50,470 nt of DNA from a virus. Its lineage: Duplodnaviria > Caudoviricetes. The stretch spans positions 1 to 50,470 of IMG/VR virus record IMGVR_UViG_3300020123_000124. One strand, given 5' to 3'. Below the pieces are notes generated by a model. The model saw nothing but the letters and a program-made list of their open reading frames with translations. It was not told the origin of the DNA and made no database searches. The position numbers and the translations under genes were made by a program. Within the stretch, counting starts at the first letter, position 1. Each line of letters starts with the position of its first letter. Positions 17,653 through 39,244 of this stretch are shown here, one piece after another.

Positions 17653-17752
17653 TGGTATACTATCCTTGTGGTTGTTGAGCAGCGATGAAACTGTGATGAG
17701 GAAGCATCATTGCTCATGACTCAGGGCGGCGGTCGGTCAGGCCGCCGTTTTG
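17653..17752 (+). ncRNA. Candidate antisense small RNA overlapping the 3' end of the wHTH gene
   Basis: TGGTATACT 17653-17661; TGAGCA/TGCTCA stem; GGCGGC/GCCGCC plus TTTT. Confidence 0.4.
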
Positions 17753-17991
17753 ATTGCTGGCCTCTTATCGGTATCATCCTTTGGCTTCCGACCCGCGCCT
17801 TTTCGCCTGATAAGCAGAATTTTCTCAGCATCTTGCTTGCTGTACACATACGTTCTCCTATCTATCTGCTTTCTGGCTATTCTGCCTTTCCTTGCCAGGA
17901 TAGATAAATAGTTCGGGTGTACATCCCTCTGATTATTCCTGCTCAATATTTCCAAGACCTCGGGTGCGCCAATCCAATCAACTTTTGTCAA
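17737..17991 (-). CDS. MerR/Xis-like winged-helix DNA-binding protein (candidate repressor)
   Basis: SD AAAGGAGG with TTG start; helix-helix-wing pattern and basic tail. Confidence 0.65.
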   Translation of the reverse strand: MTKVDWIGAPEVLEILSRNNQRDVHPNYLSILARKGRIARKQIDRRTYVYSKQDAEKILLIRRKGAGRKPKDDTDKRPAIKTAA

Positions 17992-18010: not shown

Positions 18011-18114
18011 CTAGATAATAGTATACTATGTTCTAGCCAATTTTGCAAGATACGGTAAAATTGGCTGAAATTGGTCTAAAAACACTTGACATTATTAGCT
18101 AGATAATATATAAT
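18011..18114. promoter_or_regulatory. Divergent promoter pair with shared operator-like repeats
   Basis: Right: TTGACA(18086)-17-TATAAT(18109). Left: TTGCAA-17-TATACT. CTAGATAATA at 18011 and 18099; inverted repeat AGCCAATTTT/AAAATTGGCT. Confidence 0.8.
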
Positions 18115-18212
18115 ATATATAGATGAGGGAAGTGGGGAGGCTCGGAAAGCCATTTACCGGACTGGTTGCAGGATGGCACACTTCCCTCTCAGAGACACGA
18201 AGGAGTGAGACA

Positions 18213-33594: not shown

Positions 33595-34893
33595 ATGGCC
33601 TGGACAGCCGAACGCTCAACAATCAACCAGACCTTACAATTCGGGCTTGAGACCACCCCAGGCGTCAACGTCCCGGCCAACAAAAGCATCCAGTGCTTTG
33701 CCGTCACCTTTGGGCCAATGGCCGATGTGACCGAGTTTAGTGCCACGGGCCGCAAATACCCGAGTATCCTGATTGAGAATAGCGAGTGGGTCGAGGGGAC
33801 GCTCACCGGCTCGCTTGACTATAACGGCATCGTCTACGCGCTGGCCGGGGTCTGTGGCGCACCCACCATCGGCGCGCATGGCGCGTCAGCCACGGCGAAA
33901 GATTGGCTCTTCGTCCCACCCTTAACCGGGAGTGTGCAGCCCCAAACCTTCACCATTGAGCAAGGTGAAAACAACTCGTTTGGTAACGCCATCTGGAACC
34001 ACAAGGTCAACTACGGCCTGATCAGTGAGTTTGGCTACAAGGGCGACCGCAAATCGGGCTTTAACGTCTCCGGTAAGGTGCTGGCCCAGGCACTGCAACG
34101 CGCCATCACTATGACAGCTTCGCCGACCACGGTCGCCATCCAGCCATCGGCAGGCAAGCACTTCAATATCTACCTGGACTCAACCAGCGCCGCACTCGGC
34201 ACGACGCAACTGTTGAAGTACCTGGATGTTGATTTTGCCTTTACCGGTCTGTATGGGATGTTCTTTCCCTTGAACCGTGCTAATCTTGGATGGGCGGCAC
34301 ACGTCGATCTCAACCCTGGCTGCACGATCAAGATACTGATGGAAGCTGATGCCACCGGTATGACGCCGCTCACCTACCTGCAAGCAGGTACCACGAATTT
34401 CCTGCGCATACAAGGCCAGGGGGCCATCATCGACAATATCCATACGCTCACCTTCGGCGGTGGCGTCACCGGTGGGACGTTCACCCTCTCCTATAAGGGG
34501 TTGACCACTGCGCCAATCACCTATGCCGTTGGCCTGACCGCAGCAACGATAAACACGGCCTTCCAACTGCTCACGACTGTCGGCGCAAACTGTACGGTGA
34601 CAGGTTCAGCAGGCGGGCCATACACCTTTACCTTCTCAGGGCCACTCGCCTCGGATATGTCGCCGGTGACTGTGACGAATGTCAGCCTCTCAGGTGGCAC
34701 ACCGACCGTAACACTCGTCGCCACGGCATACGCCACGTTCCAACATGACATGGCCGTCAAAGTCAGCAAGCCCAACCCGTTCAGCGATAAGGACGGCGTG
34801 TTTGCCGAGGAATGGGAGTTCACCATTGTGGAGGATGCGACCTGGGGCGCCGCGCAGAAGTTCTTGATAACAACGCTTTTAACAGCATTATAG
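33595..34893 (+). CDS. Major tail tube protein with inserted Ig-like domain
   Basis: GLETTPG, FTIEQG motifs; insert TGGTFTLSY.G.TT.PI.Y..V.G..GGPY..TF. Confidence 0.85.
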   Translation: MAWTAERSTINQTLQFGLETTPGVNVPANKSIQCFAVTFGPMADVTEFSATGRKYPSILIENSEWVEGTLTGSLDYNGIVYALAGVCGAPTIGAHGASATAKDWLFVPPLTGSVQPQTFTIEQGENNSFGNAIWNHKVNYGLISEFGYKGDRKSGFNVSGKVLAQALQRAITMTASPTTVAIQPSAGKHFNIYLDSTSAALGTTQLLKYLDVDFAFTGLYGMFFPLNRANLGWAAHVDLNPGCTIKILMEADATGMTPLTYLQAGTTNFLRIQGQGAIIDNIHTLTFGGGVTGGTFTLSYKGLTTAPITYAVGLTAATINTAFQLLTTVGANCTVTGSAGGPYTFTFSGPLASDMSPVTVTNVSLSGGTPTVTLVATAYATFQHDMAVKVSKPNPFSDKDGVFAEEWEFTIVEDATWGAAQKFLITTLLTAL

Positions 34894-34988: not shown

Positions 34989-35393
34989 ATGCCAGTTACC
35001 GTTGGGCAGATTACCAGCAATATCGGGAAAGCGACCTTTACCGTCACGATCACGGAAGAAGACGAGAACGGCTCTCTGCACACGTACCAGGAGAAAGTCA
35101 ACCTGACCTACTACCCGGGGCGTGTCACCGAGCGCACCATCGCACTCGCAAATTCGTTTCAGGTGGGTAGTGAAGTTGCCGAGGTCATCGCAGGATTTCA
35201 CGCCTTCAACGCTGAGTTGGTGCGGCTTATCAAATGGTGGGATGTCCTGGAAAATGATGGCGTCACCATGTTCCCGATAGATATTACCCGCCTTGAAGAA
35301 CTCTCGATTGATTTTCGCGGGCAGTTGCTGGTGGCGATTATGGAGGAGATAAGCCCGGAAGCGATAGCGCCTCAGATGAACGGCGCGCACTGA
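34989..35393 (+). CDS. Tail assembly chaperone G
   Basis: SD AGGAG; between tail tube and tape measure. Confidence 0.8.
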   Translation: MPVTVGQITSNIGKATFTVTITEEDENGSLHTYQEKVNLTYYPGRVTERTIALANSFQVGSEVAEVIAGFHAFNAELVRLIKWWDVLENDGVTMFPIDITRLEELSIDFRGQLLVAIMEEISPEAIAPQMNGAH

Positions 35394-35581
35394 GGCGATG
35401 GTTAGCGACCGAGGGTAAGTTCGGAGAGCCGCCAGAGGACTACGTGCTCTTTAAGGCAGCGGAATACATGCGTATCCCAACGCCGCAAATTGTGGATGTG
35501 CCGCTCTGGTGGATCCACAAGGCCATCAATTATATGTCAGCAGAGGCCGAAGCACAACAGATTTTAGCAGACAGGAAATAG
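35354..35581 (+). CDS. Tail assembly chaperone T domain (-1 frame of G)
   Basis: Open -1 frame LRRWLATEGKFGEPPEDY..VPLWW..ADRK*; candidate shift site C CCG GAA 35354-35360. Confidence 0.7.
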   Translation, partial: PGSDSASDERRALRRWLATEGKFGEPPEDYVLFKAAEYMRIPTPQIVDVPLWWIHKAINYMSAEAEAQQILADRK

Positions 35582-35594
35582 CCACATATGGCAA

Positions 35595-36644
35595 TCAGGC
35601 AAGGAAAGCATGCGGAAGTTTTGTTCCTTTGCGGCTATTGCATGAACGGCAAGCGACACGCAGATTATCGGCGGTATGTGAGCCGCCATGGAAAAGAGGG
35701 ATAACATGATCGAGTGTGACGTTTTGAGGCGTGCAGATCAGCCCACAGAGGTAGCACGTCCATTTGTCGCGCTCAATGATAGCCATGCGGTCAATCTTCT
35801 CAATTCTAGATGCATTCAATTGACGAGCGCGGCGTCGATTCTGCGTATCAGTGTGCTTTTCAGGAAATGTTTGCCTCCAAAGGCGTCCATACGCACGCAA
35901 ATGATTCTTGTTTACCATTCCATATTCTTGACGCCACTCACGTCGTTTCTCATATTCCAGACGGCGAAACTCAGGCGTCTCTTTGCTATGGCGAATGCGA
36001 TCATAAGCATGCCGTTCTTTGCGATGAGTCTCATTGTACTCACGATAATACCTTGTGCGATGCTCTTTATTAGCAGCTTCCCAACGATAATACCTTGCGT
36101 GATGCTCTTCAGGATGCTTATACGTCCATTTACGCGATATAGCACGGTAGTGCTCTGGATTGTTGTCATAGAGAAGCTTTTTAAGTGTCTTATCACATTC
36201 TTTGCATTTACCATGTCGCCTTTTCCCACGTTTGCTGTTTGTATAGAACTCGCTCACCGGCTTTTCGACATGGCAGTACGTACACCGCTTGACCATGACT
36301 CCCGCTGCATTCTCAAAAGCACGGTAGAAGCGCCCCGTAGGGTCATTTCGGTACTGCTCACGTCGCTTCTCATGGTCAAGAGCTACTTCACAAACCTTAC
36401 ATCGACTATGAAAGTAACCAGGGTTAGCAGGGCTAAACTCACTAATAGATTTGACTTCCTGGCATCGTTTGCACTGCTTTGTTTGGATTTTGGGTTGTGG
36501 TGGGTTAAGCTTGCGCTTTGCCATCCACTCCTTGTCCGATTTGGTTTTACATTCTCGACACTCAGCACGCCTGCGGCCTCTGCTAGGTTGCATTGCAAAA
36601 GCCTCTTCAGGCTTCTCGATACCACACTTGGTACATCGCTTCAT
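35595..36644 (-). CDS. HNH endonuclease with three N-terminal CxxC zinc-finger repeats
   Basis: SD GGAGG before MKRCTKC; RD...CYLCG..LDHVIPL..GG.H...NL...C..CN..KG. Confidence 0.9.
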   Translation of the reverse strand: MKRCTKCGIEKPEEAFAMQPSRGRRRAECRECKTKSDKEWMAKRKLNPPQPKIQTKQCKRCQEVKSISEFSPANPGYFHSRCKVCEVALDHEKRREQYRNDPTGRFYRAFENAAGVMVKRCTYCHVEKPVSEFYTNSKRGKRRHGKCKECDKTLKKLLYDNNPEHYRAISRKWTYKHPEEHHARYYRWEAANKEHRTRYYREYNETHRKERHAYDRIRHSKETPEFRRLEYEKRREWRQEYGMVNKNHLRAYGRLWRQTFPEKHTDTQNRRRARQLNASRIEKIDRMAIIERDKWTCYLCGLICTPQNVTLDHVIPLFHGGSHTADNLRVACRSCNSRKGTKLPHAFLA

Positions 36645-36671
36645 GATCGCCTCCAATGTTTTGTAGCTAAC

Positions 36672-36700
36672 ATTATAGTACAAGGAGCAGGAGGTGTCAA
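36672..36700 (-). promoter_or_regulatory. Consensus sigma70 promoter of the HNH gene
   Basis: TTGACA(36700-36695)-17 nt-TATAAT(36677-36672). Confidence 0.85.
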
Positions 36701-39244
36701 ATTCCTATCGTAGCAAGCCAACTCGTCGCACAAGTCTCAGTTCAAGGTGCTCAGGCCGCGCAGGGCCAGTTGTTAGGCGTGGGCCAGGCGGCTGATGCAG
36801 CGGAGGCGCGTTTCCGTTCGCTGGCCGTGATCGGTTCGGGGCTGCTGGTGGCAGCCCTGATTGCCGTGGGAGTCATCTCGACCAAAATGGCGGCCGACTT
36901 CCAGCAAGGGGTCAATCGCCTCAAGACCGGCGCCGGTGATGCGACTGATAGCTTCTCAACCCTCGCCGGTGGTATCCTCAAGGTATCGGTAGCAACTGGC
37001 CTGATGTCAGGGCCGCTCACCAAGGCCATGTATGAAATCCTCTCAAGTGGGCAGCGCGGTGCACAAGCCTTTGATACGCTCTCCGCAGCCGCCAAGGGCG
37101 CCGTAATCGAACAAGCCAATGTGGTCGACGTGTCCGATACCTTAGCCGGTGCCATGACCAATTTCGGCACGAAGACCTTTGGCGCGGTGGCCTACATGAA
37201 CGGCCTGATCACGGCAGTCTCAAGAGGGCGCATCACTTTGCAAGACCTCTCAACGGCGATGGGGCCAATCGAGCCAGTGGCGCACGCCATGGGCATCTCC
37301 TTTGCCGACCTCTCTGCTGCCATGAGCACTCAAACCAATGCCGCCATACCGGCGGCCAGGGCTGCGACGGGGCTGCGCTTCATGATGCAAGCCCTGGAAG
37401 TTCCGACGACCAAGGCCAGCAAAGCCATGCAAAAGTGGGGACTCGATACCGTGGCGGTGGCCGATGAGATGAAGGTCAGTCTACCTGGCGCTCTGCAAAT
37501 GATCTATGACGCCGCCAAGAAAGCAGGGCCAGAGGGTTCGGTGCCTTTCGATCGGGCAGTGTCCGATATGGTTGGCGGTCAGCGCAGCCTCGGCGCCTTT
37601 TTGGCACTCACCGGCAGCCACATGAAAGATTTCGCGGCCAATTCTGCGGCCATAGCAGCCTCCATGAGAACCGGCGCAGGTGAGGTAGCAGGGTGGGCTT
37701 TAGCGCAGACGAACTTTAATGTGATCATGGACCGGGCGAAGGCGGCGATTGCGTCGGCGGCTATTGGCCTGGGCCTGCTGCTCCTGCCTGCTCTGGGGCG
37801 TATCGTGGGCATCATTCCGCAAGTCGTGGACTACGTCACCAACTTCTCAGCACATGCCAATGTGCTCGTCCCCATCCTGGCGGGCGTGGCTGCCATCATT
37901 GCGGGCTTCCTGGTTCCGGCAGTCATCGCACTCGCGGCGGGTGTGATTGCCGCCACCTGGCCGGTGCTCGCCATCGGCGCGGCGGTGGCGGGCCTGGTCG
38001 CCATCTTCATGCACTGGTATTCGACGAATGCAGGCTTCAAGGCGTTCATCGACACTCTGGTGAACGGGTTCAGAACGCTGTGGTCGCTCATCCAAGCCAA
38101 TTTCATGCCCACGATGCAGAGGTTAGGGGCTTTCTTCCAATCGACGATCTTACCCGTCTTGCAGCAGGTCGGGAGTTTTATTATCGGCACCTTCAAGCCA
38201 GCCTGGGATCAGCTTGTCACCACCTGGAAACAAAATCTGTTGCCTGGGCTTCAAATGCTGTGGGGCTTGTTCCAACAACTCCTGCCTGTCCTGAAAGTGG
38301 TGGGGATTGTGCTGCTGGCCAGTGTGGTTCTCCCGATGGCGGCGGTGATTGCCATTGTGGTTGTCGCAGGGGTGGCTATCATGAAATTCGTCGCACTGCT
38401 CATCCAGGGTTGGGGCTTGCTGGTCTCGTTTGCGGGCGCCGCTTTCTCGGCTATCGGGACGACCATCACGAATTTCAAGAATCTGGTCGGCAACACCTTC
38501 AATGCCATCGGGACGTTCATCCATGACAAAATTCTCTGGATTTACAACCATAATGTCTATGTCAAGGCGTTCGTCGATCTGATCGTCAACGAGTTCCACC
38601 TGCTGCAAAATATCGTTGGTACCGTCTTCGCGACCATCGCCGCGCTCATCGGGCAAAAACTGGCCCAGGCGCAGGCATTCGTCGCGACCTTTGTGAATGT
38701 ACTCGGTGGGCAATTCAGTCAACTTGGCTCATCCATCCAATCGAAAGTCAGCGCCATCGGCTCCTGGATTGCCAGTACCATCGGCGGGTGGGCCAATGCC
38801 GCCTACCAATGGGGCGCGAACCTCATCGGGAGCTTTATCAACGGCATCTGGAGCATGATCGGGGGCGTGATCTCGGCTGCCCAAAATGTCATGGGACAGG
38901 TGGCCAATATTCTTGGCTTCCACTCGCCCGCCAAAGAAGGGCCAGGTAAGGATGCTGACACCTGGGCGCCCAACCTCATGAAGATGTACACGCAGGGGCT
39001 CGTCGCCGCCCTTCCGAACATGCAAGCCGCGCTTAATACCTTGATGATACCGGTCGGGAATATGCTCTCCGGGCAGAGTCCAACACTGTCGGCACCGATG
39101 AGAGCACCGGCACCTGGCGCGAGTTCGCAGGCCTCGTCCTCACCGATCAATGTCAATGTCTACCTTGCAGGCGCTCCTGTGGCGAAGGCACTCATGCCGC
39201 ATATCGCCCAACAAATCCGCACGGCGACAGGAGCGAAGTTCTGA
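36701..39244 (+). CDS. Tape measure protein (TP901 family), proposed ATT start, 847 aa
   Basis: Ala-rich helical protein with aromatic periodicity; AGGAGGTG SD 4 nt before ATT; ORF track starts at TTG 36770, which has no SD. Confidence 0.9.
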   Translation: MPIVASQLVAQVSVQGAQAAQGQLLGVGQAADAAEARFRSLAVIGSGLLVAALIAVGVISTKMAADFQQGVNRLKTGAGDATDSFSTLAGGILKVSVATGLMSGPLTKAMYEILSSGQRGAQAFDTLSAAAKGAVIEQANVVDVSDTLAGAMTNFGTKTFGAVAYMNGLITAVSRGRITLQDLSTAMGPIEPVAHAMGISFADLSAAMSTQTNAAIPAARAATGLRFMMQALEVPTTKASKAMQKWGLDTVAVADEMKVSLPGALQMIYDAAKKAGPEGSVPFDRAVSDMVGGQRSLGAFLALTGSHMKDFAANSAAIAASMRTGAGEVAGWALAQTNFNVIMDRAKAAIASAAIGLGLLLLPALGRIVGIIPQVVDYVTNFSAHANVLVPILAGVAAIIAGFLVPAVIALAAGVIAATWPVLAIGAAVAGLVAIFMHWYSTNAGFKAFIDTLVNGFRTLWSLIQANFMPTMQRLGAFFQSTILPVLQQVGSFIIGTFKPAWDQLVTTWKQNLLPGLQMLWGLFQQLLPVLKVVGIVLLASVVLPMAAVIAIVVVAGVAIMKFVALLIQGWGLLVSFAGAAFSAIGTTITNFKNLVGNTFNAIGTFIHDKILWIYNHNVYVKAFVDLIVNEFHLLQNIVGTVFATIAALIGQKLAQAQAFVATFVNVLGGQFSQLGSSIQSKVSAIGSWIASTIGGWANAAYQWGANLIGSFINGIWSMIGGVISAAQNVMGQVANILGFHSPAKEGPGKDADTWAPNLMKMYTQGLVAALPNMQAALNTLMIPVGNMLSGQSPTLSAPMRAPAPGASSQASSSPINVNVYLAGAPVAKALMPHIAQQIRTATGAKF

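Follow-up and report, generated by a model that had tools for sequence, protein, structure and literature searches.

An antisense HNH endonuclease cassette that probably supplies the ribosome-binding site and an ATT start codon of a phage tape-measure gene

Start site of the tape-measure gene

How does a phage translate an essential gene whose 5' end has been interrupted by a nuclease gene? The question is raised by a locus in the virus record IMGVR_UViG_3300020123_000124 (Duplodnaviria; Caudoviricetes), all 50,470 bp of which, with direct terminal repeats and estimated to be complete, form the window analysed here; all positions are those of the window. In plus-strand order, a gene for a major tail protein (33595-34893; phrog_10909) is followed by a 134-aa open reading frame (ORF) at the position of a tail assembly chaperone, a -1 frame, a short remnant that begins with ATG, an HNH endonuclease gene on the opposite strand, and the gene for the tape measure protein (TMP). 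Our reading, to which we give a probability of about 0.7, is that the antisense HNH cassette occupies a site just within the 5' end of the old TMP gene, and that its control region supplies the Shine-Dalgarno (SD) sequence and the ATT start codon with which the TMP gene is now translated.

Read from this ATT, the TMP gene spans 36701-39244 on the plus strand (847 aa) and matches PF10145 (2.5e-27) and phrog_58 (1e-46). The first codons of its frame are ATT (36701), CCT, ATC (36707), GTA, GCA, AGC and CAA; upstream the frame is closed by a TAA at 36668-36670, and it contains no ATG, GTG or TTG before the TTG at 36770-36772. This first canonical start is the choice of the gene caller, and both the ORF list and the database call (P0001, 824 aa) begin TMP there. 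In relatives, however, the corresponding position is a conserved internal leucine codon; L002 holds the same CAG TTG TTA GGC inside its TMP ORF. A start at 36770 would drop 23 conserved N-terminal residues.

We compared the N-terminus with those of the 59 other homologues whose N-termini were printed. The motif M(x)[IVL]x[AGS][SA][QE][LI] was found in 34 of the 59 at the called N-terminus or, for P0014, near it. Openings among these homologues include seven MAI, five MSI and one MPI (P0015), and P0012 begins MSIVASQL. The window residues encoded from 36707 onward (IVASQLVAQVSV...) correspond to this conserved N-terminus. Three homologues (P0002, P0044 and P0052) have called N-termini that lie 5-11 residues inside the conserved motif; P0002, the nearest homologue of the window TMP at 90% identity, begins VEGAAAAQ, its called start being 11 residues short. 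These three may be further TMPs with non-canonical starts.

The SD sequence proposed for TMP, AGGAGGTG (36689-36696, plus strand), is separated from the ATT by 4 nt (TCAA), or by 6 nt when counted from its GGAGG core. The opposite strand of the same DNA is a sigma-70 promoter of the HNH gene (36672-36700, minus strand) that matches the consensus TTGACA-17-TATAAT at 12/12 positions, with TTGACA at 36700-36695, TATAAT at 36677-36672 and a 17-nt spacer at 36678-36694; the TMP SD lies inside this spacer and the -35 element. An exact TTGACA-N17-TATAAT occurs twice in the 50,470 bp, against an expectation of 0.00 (none in 100 shuffles). The only other copy (18086-18114, plus strand) lies ahead of a series of small rightward ORFs that begins at 18123, with a leftward 84-aa ORF (17737-17991) diverging from it; this is probably the early promoter region of the phage. 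From its consensus promoter, the HNH nuclease is probably made early, although the timing is a guess.

The HNH gene (35595-36644, minus strand; 349 aa) was identified as an HNH endonuclease gene by Pfam, by PHROGs and by invariant residues. Residues 310-360 match HNH_5 at 1.7e-13 (50.7 bits, cut-off 27.5) and HNH at 2.2e-9 (37.8 bits, cut-off 21.4), the families being PF01844 and PF14279, and the gene matches phrog_1035 at 1.1e-33. D312, H313, N327, N336, C297, C300, C332 and C335 are invariant across 23 aligned HNH homologues; from the fold, we take these to include the catalytic His and Asn residues and the zinc-holding Cys residues. The start is best placed at the ATG (complement 36642-36644) rather than at a TTG at 36683, in agreement with gene call P0121, and an SD sequence, GGAGG (36650-36654, minus strand), lies 5 nt ahead of this ATG. 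The protein has repeated CxxC zinc-finger-like modules toward the N-terminus and the HNH domain at the C-terminus. Within residues 1-170 we observed 3-4 repeats of a C-x2-C ... K-P-x-S-E-F ... C-x2-C module, together with a weak match to Pfam Stc1 and to a PHROG annotated 'Lar-like'; the modules are presumably the DNA-recognition part. The gene is present in a single copy in the genome. A search of Rfam with both strands of 35000-37300 gave no match at E<=1 and no group I or group II intron core, and the non-coding part of the insert is limited to the 56 bp between the HNH start and the TMP frame. The opposite orientation, the gene's own promoter and SD, the lack of an intron match and the plain ATG that lies beyond the cassette in relatives are all features of a free-standing gene.

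The control region is conserved in related cassettes. In an alignment (A2) of six sequences (the window, L051, L052, L054, L055 and L056), all run from CAT through about 25 nt to ATTATA, and then through a G-rich spacer of 17 nt to TGTCAA and a start codon; to the right of the start codon the sequences diverge, because they belong to different phages. The codon immediately after TGTCAA is ATG in all five of the other loci, which represent three lineages, and ATT in the window. The HNH promoter is conserved in L051, L052 and L054-56, and G-rich, SD-like spacers are kept in all the aligned cassettes. The longest match to the anti-SD sequence is that of the window (AGGAGGTG), the others having AGGAGGT or AGGGGGTG; a single case cannot show that a longer SD compensates for ATT. 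It is the positional match to the relatives' ATG, together with the SD spacing, that leads us to propose that TMP probably initiates at ATT 36701.

The preliminary description of this locus, made from the letters alone, had placed the insertion and the ATT start as we do. Its coordinates, stops, frames and 1113-bp deletion were all confirmed by direct reading, as were the absence of an in-frame ATG, GTG or TTG between the stop at 36668 and 36770 and the position of the TMP SD inside the HNH promoter. The homologue N-termini begin much as it expected, and the ATG found at the position of the ATT in related loci supports its proposal that the cassette supplies both SD and start. It had further suggested that the element makes its own promoter indispensable for an essential gene, which is too strong: partial deletions would lose the ribosome-binding site (RBS), but a precise deletion would restore the old gene.

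On the far side of the HNH gene, 6 nt past the stop of the -1 frame, the plus strand carries ATG GCA ATC (35588-35596; M-A-I), which looks like the start of a TMP gene. Among 32 loci with TMP relatives in viral contigs, four (L002, L003, L004 and L006) have a readable junction and no HNH gene; in these, the distance from the chaperone-frame stop to the TMP start is 4 nt (L002), 7 nt (L003 and L004) or 6 nt (L006). Of the M-x-I openings of TMP homologues, MAI and MSI occur most often, although the shorter M-I-x is commoner still. We regard the remnant as the old start because of the 4-7 nt spacing in HNH-less relatives and because of these homologue N-termini. In an alignment of left junctions, ATG-NCN-ATC stands directly against the HNH stop codon in the window, L051 and L053, and in the window the last two bases of the remnant ATC are part of the minus-strand stop codon (complement 35595-97). 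Deletion of 35597-36709 (1113 bp, 3 x 371) yields MAIVASQLVAQV, with ATC at both ends. A single 3-bp repeat is within chance (1 in 64), and the remnant is meaningful because of its position and the comparative data rather than the ATC repeat alone.

The sequence of the locus is unlikely to be an assembly artefact. The left junction is bridged, with 0 differences, by contigs of runs X2 (35544-35694) and X7 (35508-35658), and the right junction, including the ATT, by contigs of X2 (36411-36808), X7 (36650-36800) and X9 (36639-36789), also with 0 differences. These runs may share one campaign, so we count them only as support against an artefact. The sequence is circulating, with an identical ATT junction in at least three further soil runs, and all 21 of the 21 runs that hold the region are labelled as soil metagenomes. 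Among 50,697 records of isolated phages, none showed DNA similarity to the window. The insert differs from the adjoining TMP gene in base composition, with a GC content of 0.415-0.505 in 200-bp windows across 35800-36699 and of 0.585-0.660 in windows across 36700-38099.

Upstream of the remnant, the putative tail assembly chaperone (34989-35393, plus strand; 134 aa, G-like) is named only by its position between the major tail protein and TMP; homologous ORFs occupy this position in L002-L006, L051 and L055. The -1 frame ('T' extension; 35312-35581, plus strand, stop TAG at 35579-81) overlaps the end of G and is conserved, with 55% amino acid identity to L051 and 41% to L053. Neither the G-like ORF nor the T frame has a Pfam or PHROG match, and the 82-nt overlap (35312-35393) contains no XXXYYYZ slippery heptamer; a G/T frameshift, if it occurs, would use an unconventional site.

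Related cassettes, mobility and rival readings

We found 143 homologues of the window HNH protein at E<=0.001, and alignment scans led to 16 viral, 39 metagenomic and 7 genomic loci. The best of the 7 genomic loci is 41% identical over a third of the protein, and matches this weak give no clue to the host. The layout of chaperone frames, antisense HNH gene and TMP recurs in L051 (HNH 66% identical), L052 (64%) and L054/55/56 (42%), the last being three contigs that agree fully in HNH protein and in junction sequence. TMP was identified by Pfam in these relatives where length allowed, with L051 reaching only 29.1 bits against a cut-off of 30.2. More distant HNH relatives (30-43% identity) also lie antisense between a chaperone frame and a Pfam-confirmed TMP.

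At the chaperone/TMP site, the cassette is present in the window, L051, L052, L053 and L054-56, and absent from L002, L003, L004 and L006. The exact empty-site sequence predicted in the preliminary description was found in no relative, the closest HNH-less one, L002, being only 70% identical in protein. L052 and L055 have flanks that are 83-87% identical in DNA and HNH proteins that are 45% identical. By contrast, the L052 HNH is 64% identical to that of the window in amino acids and 70% in DNA over its length, whereas the right flanks of the two, the only flanks compared, have no blastn match. Because nuclease and flank disagree, and because the cassette is present or absent at one site, it looks like a homing gene; on this comparison of genomes, the cassette moves between phages at this site, and the HNH protein would presumably cut the empty TMP allele.

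In several of the more distant cassettes, the first codons of TMP appear on both sides of the insert. L035 retains only an SD and ATG on the left, and its new copy starts with ATG. L062 retains six codons (MPVASE) and has the same six in the new copy, with 4 synonymous differences; L064 retains seven, their start now ACG, and has the same seven with 2 synonymous differences; and L041 retains nine (MAMTVSELQ) and has the same nine, with 7 codons that differ, all synonymously. In L038/L039, two IMG/VR contigs from two assemblies that are identical over both junction stretches compared, the remnant is ATG CCT GTG and the new copy consists of GGAGGG, 9 nt and ATT CCG GTT. The L038 TMP is identified by PF10145 (5.7e-21), and the TMP frame of L038/L039 contains no ATG, GTG or TTG from the upstream stop to 30 nt beyond the conserved N-terminal motif. 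As judged from this frame, L038/L039 is a second case of ATT, independent of the window lineage. Its first canonical start is a TTG about 50 codons into TMP, and the gene is callable only from that internal TTG, a second annotation error of the kind seen in the window.

Among the duplicated non-start codons of L041, L062, L064 and L038, 15 of 21 differ, all synonymously, and drift in a dead remnant does not leave this pattern. Either both copies were under protein selection in two phages before they were joined, or the cassette carries a recoded copy. Target-site duplication, which we considered as the origin of the repeated codons, fails on the all-synonymous differences in these same four cassettes.

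Several observations weigh against an ATT start supplied by the cassette. AUU initiated at 1-2% of the AUG level in E. coli reporters (10.1101/063800); the remnant is lacking in L052 and L055; and in the clade of the window, the amino acids of the remnant and of the new copy are not the same, with A versus P in the window and S and I versus L and L in L051, so that ATT CCT could be assigned to the cassette or to TMP. If TMP instead began at TTG 36770, the 23 codons upstream would be untranslated leftovers and the protein would have been truncated by the cassette. This TTG is the sole canonical start in the frame, it is the start taken in P0001, and a weak AGGG stands 4 nt upstream of it. However, the upstream codons match an N-terminus conserved in a majority of the homologues compared, the TTG corresponds to an internal leucine codon of relatives, the strong SD precedes the ATT instead, and related cassettes have ATG where the window has ATT; we therefore consider a TTG start unlikely. 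The gene could also be dead, with ATT a recent disabling mutation of ATG in a defective or hitch-hiking phage, as might be argued from the ATG at this position in all three other lineages and from the poor performance of AUU in E. coli (10.1101/063800). We think this quite improbable, since the same sequence was assembled in the further soil runs, the genome has terminal repeats and is complete, the 847-codon TMP ORF is unbroken, ATT recurs in the unrelated cassette lineage of L038/L039, and phage Corndog, discussed below, grows normally with ACG as the corresponding codon (PMC4351075).

The chance that initiation occurs at ATC 36707, or at another near-cognate codon, is slim: ATC is near-cognate (10.1101/063800) and lies 10 nt after the SD, but ATT 36701 is better spaced (4-6 nt) and is aligned with the ATG of relatives. 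Slimmer still is the chance that the cassette is spliced out, excised or bypassed, so that ATG GCA ATC is joined to GTA GCA and the protein begins MAIVASQ. Such joining would be in frame with ATC at both ends, bypass is one of two options left for Corndog (PMC4351075), and an HNH-interrupted TMP of phage ICP1 is spliced (PMC10055350). In the window, however, neither an Rfam intron nor any other family was found at E<=1 and just 56 bp of the insert are non-coding; relatives with a plain ATG after the same cassette need no joining; L052 and L055 lack the left remnant that joining would need; and the frame from ATG 35588 stops at 35702. Moreover, to our knowledge, a translational hop of 1.1 kb is without precedent. 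Excision, which the preliminary description had kept as an alternative, is not supported: no insert-skipping or HNH-less form occurs in the contigs of four runs (X2, X7, X8 and X9), although contigs drop rare variants, nor is there an intron signature.

A stop-free frame antisense to the nuclease gene

The plus strand across the HNH gene carries a long ORF that is codon-aligned antisense to it (35706-36713, stop TAG at 36711-13), which we refer to as the bridge. Because of this alignment, only the HNH codons TTA, CTA and TCA can close the bridge frame. Of the 362 codons of the window HNH gene, 2 are of this kind. None of the other gene-like ORFs in the window (27 in all) has so low a rate, although the GC content of the HNH gene is low; the other ORFs have 276 in 9869 codons when pooled, and each has 1.7-5.4 per 100. 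In all nine cassette lineages at the TMP site, the HNH gene contains 0-2 closing codons (6 in 2500 codons overall), and 92-100% of its length is open in the antisense frame. By contrast, seven sense-oriented HNH genes from isolates, comprising the homologues in Pam1, Hyacinthe, Samisti12, Baka, TunaTartare and RHph_X2_25 and Corndog gp56, have 2-12 closing codons each (35 in 1520), with open runs of 31-63%. The difference between 6 in 2500 and 35 in 1520 is significant (Fisher p = 3.9e-10). Corndog gp56 was included in the sense-oriented set although it is not among the 40 listed of the 43 phage records that match the window HNH. The depletion of antisense stops is the solid part of what follows.

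The bridge frame ends close to the new TMP start. In the window, the frame is open from 35682, with ATG at 35688 and at 35706 and an SD-like GAGGG at 35696-700, and its stop lies on TMP codons 4-5, so that the bridge and TMP overlap by 13 nt. Relative to the TMP start, the bridge stop is offset by -5 to +10 nt in 9/9 lineages, the sequences being the TAG at 36711-13 in the window, ATGA in L055, TAA-ATG in L035 and TAATT over the ATT in L038. On the left, the remnant start is itself in the bridge frame in L035, L038, L041 and L062. In the window, the remnant ATG opens ORF-a (35588-35704, plus strand; 38 codons, stop TAA at 35702-04), which has equivalents of 38 codons in L051 and 35 codons in L053; in all three, the ORF-a stop lies 1-10 nt before a bridge-frame ATG.

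Not all of these features carry equal weight. Stops in other frames beside TMP starts are also found in the HNH-less L003 and L004 (ATGAT), so the coincidence of the bridge ending at the TMP start is weaker than it looks, and the cassette lineages are related rather than fully independent. The ATG at 35706 and its SD-like motif were set aside as evidence for the bridge: they are the antisense of the codons for the catalytic DHV(I/V)PL motif, and their conservation is therefore uninformative by itself. As separate observations, L036, L040 and L065 have antisense HNH genes of the same family that lie with the major tail gene on one side and the chaperone gene on the other, with 1 closing codon in 260 in L036 (almost stop-free), 4 in L040 and 3 in L065; and in L063 a GC-rich, terminator-like hairpin on the left replaces the remnant, with 0 closing codons in 199 in the antisense frame.

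This organization suggests a relay in which ribosomes that begin at the old start are passed on to the new one. The control region would have two uses, serving as promoter and SD for the nuclease on the minus strand and providing AGGAGGTG for TMP on the plus strand, and the late transcript would read through the insert. Ribosomes would begin at the stranded ATG 35588 and translate ORF-a, be handed over to ATG 35706 and travel through the 335-codon bridge ORF, and terminate at the TAG at 36711-13, which overlaps the beginning of the new TMP frame. There, the strong SD would keep 30S subunits in place, and initiator tRNA would decode the ATT, yielding fMet-Pro-Ile-Val-Ala-Ser-Gln, or PIVASQ once Met is removed. 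Such a relay would avoid polarity, leaving no untranslated gap of 1.1 kb in an operon in which every downstream gene is required, and termination beside a start with an 8-nt SD would help a weak ATT to work. The tape measure protein is present in few copies per virion, and a weak start may be tolerable for this reason. One consideration limits the role of coupling: re-initiation in E. coli points to a 30S-IF3 complex that would still discriminate against non-AUG codons (PMC2268962), and under IF3 scrutiny the relay may matter more for polarity than for codon choice.

More tentatively, and with rather less than even confidence, we suggest that these cassettes are self-contained 'home-and-rescue' modules for the 5' ends of TMP genes, combining a promoter, an RBS and start, recoded codons and a bridge. 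Such a module would re-supply the first 1-9 TMP codons in recoded form with a new RBS and start, and its bridge would keep the late operon translated and permit re-initiation on ATT, or on ACG in Corndog, where the sense-strand HNH gene would itself serve as the bridge. Recoding would shield the carrier both against the nuclease that it encodes and against being lost when the repeats recombine.

The data point to a strategy by which a selfish gene can reside in an essential gene with three devices: a re-supplied RBS and start, a copy of the first codons that is either left behind or carried along, and a stop-free antisense strand. Non-canonical starts after an HNH insertion recur in unrelated lineages, with ACG once and ATT twice, and every odd start is topped by the end of an upstream ORF, which gives a testable hypothesis of coupled re-initiation. 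There are also consequences for annotation: gene callers truncate the window TMP by 23 residues, and there are comparable errors in L038/L039 and in Corndog (about 600 bp short). Depletion of antisense stops is a simple sequence signature with which other antisense insertions within operons could be examined.

Comparison with known systems

Intronless homing spreads the free-standing homing genes of T4-like phages (seg, mob), which are wedged in or between essential genes (Edgell et al. 2010, PMC2988022). According to the same account, promoters of essential downstream genes are embedded in such elements, favouring their retention, overlapping stops and starts suggest translational coupling, with overlaps of 11-24 bp on record, and segD lies antisense to capsid genes (PMC2988022). 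The embedded signals in T4 are promoters, whereas in the window they would be an RBS and a start inside the nuclease's opposite-strand promoter; and for segD, the parts of that account that treat it give no identified promoter and report no antisense stop-free frame (PMC2988022). Homing endonuclease genes (HEGs) can also lie inside a coding region that remains functional, as with mobE in nrdA of Aeh1 and mobA in gene 39/60 of T4 (PMC2988022, PMC8351571). Those insertions give two polypeptides that reassemble, whereas in the window only 3 codons are cut off, and these would be re-supplied. In ICP1-like phages, TMP is a frequent HEG target, and fragments of essential genes beside HEGs have been proposed as recombination substrates (Barth et al. 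2023, PMC10055350). The interrupted ICP1 TMP is mended by RNA splicing (PMC10055350), in contrast to the window, where no intron is seen. In the literature searched, which excluded subscription journals and supplements, we found no RBS and start inside a nuclease's own opposite-strand promoter, and neither a recoded 5' duplicate nor an antisense stop-free frame over a homing gene.

An ATT start on a real gene is not itself new. The E. coli genes infC and pcnB start at AUU (10.1101/063800), and in infC the AUU serves autoregulation by IF3 (cited in PMC2268962). The window TMP would resemble these genes in starting at AUU, and it differs from infC in that nothing ties it to an autoregulation loop.

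The closest parallel is Corndog, which, like Firecracker and YungJamal, has an HNH gene between the tail assembly chaperone gene and tmp (Cresawn et al. 2015, PMC4351075). Proteomics placed the Corndog TMP N-terminus at an ACG right after the inserted HNH gene, with peptides that lie upstream of the start in the annotation, and reverse transcription PCR showed no splicing, leaving the mechanism between initiation at ACG and bypass (PMC4351075). As in the window, the Corndog HNH gene lies where chaperone and TMP meet, and close relatives lack it; TMP is without a canonical start and has a non-canonical codon at the position of the relatives' ATG; the gene caller picks a downstream start; and an upstream ORF ends beside the odd start. 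The two differ in orientation and control, with the Corndog HNH gene on the sense strand, taking the place of the old start, and that of the window antisense with its own consensus promoter. They also differ in start codon, ACG in Corndog and ATT in the window, and in that the N-terminus has proteomic support in Corndog while that of the window is predicted from sequence. The Corndog HNH gene has a start that overlaps the chaperone stop and a stop, TGA, 4 nt before the ACG, and this arrangement fits the same relay, with the nuclease ORF as a possible bridge. How Corndog's tape-measure gene is initiated, a question since 2015, becomes testable through the relay hypothesis.

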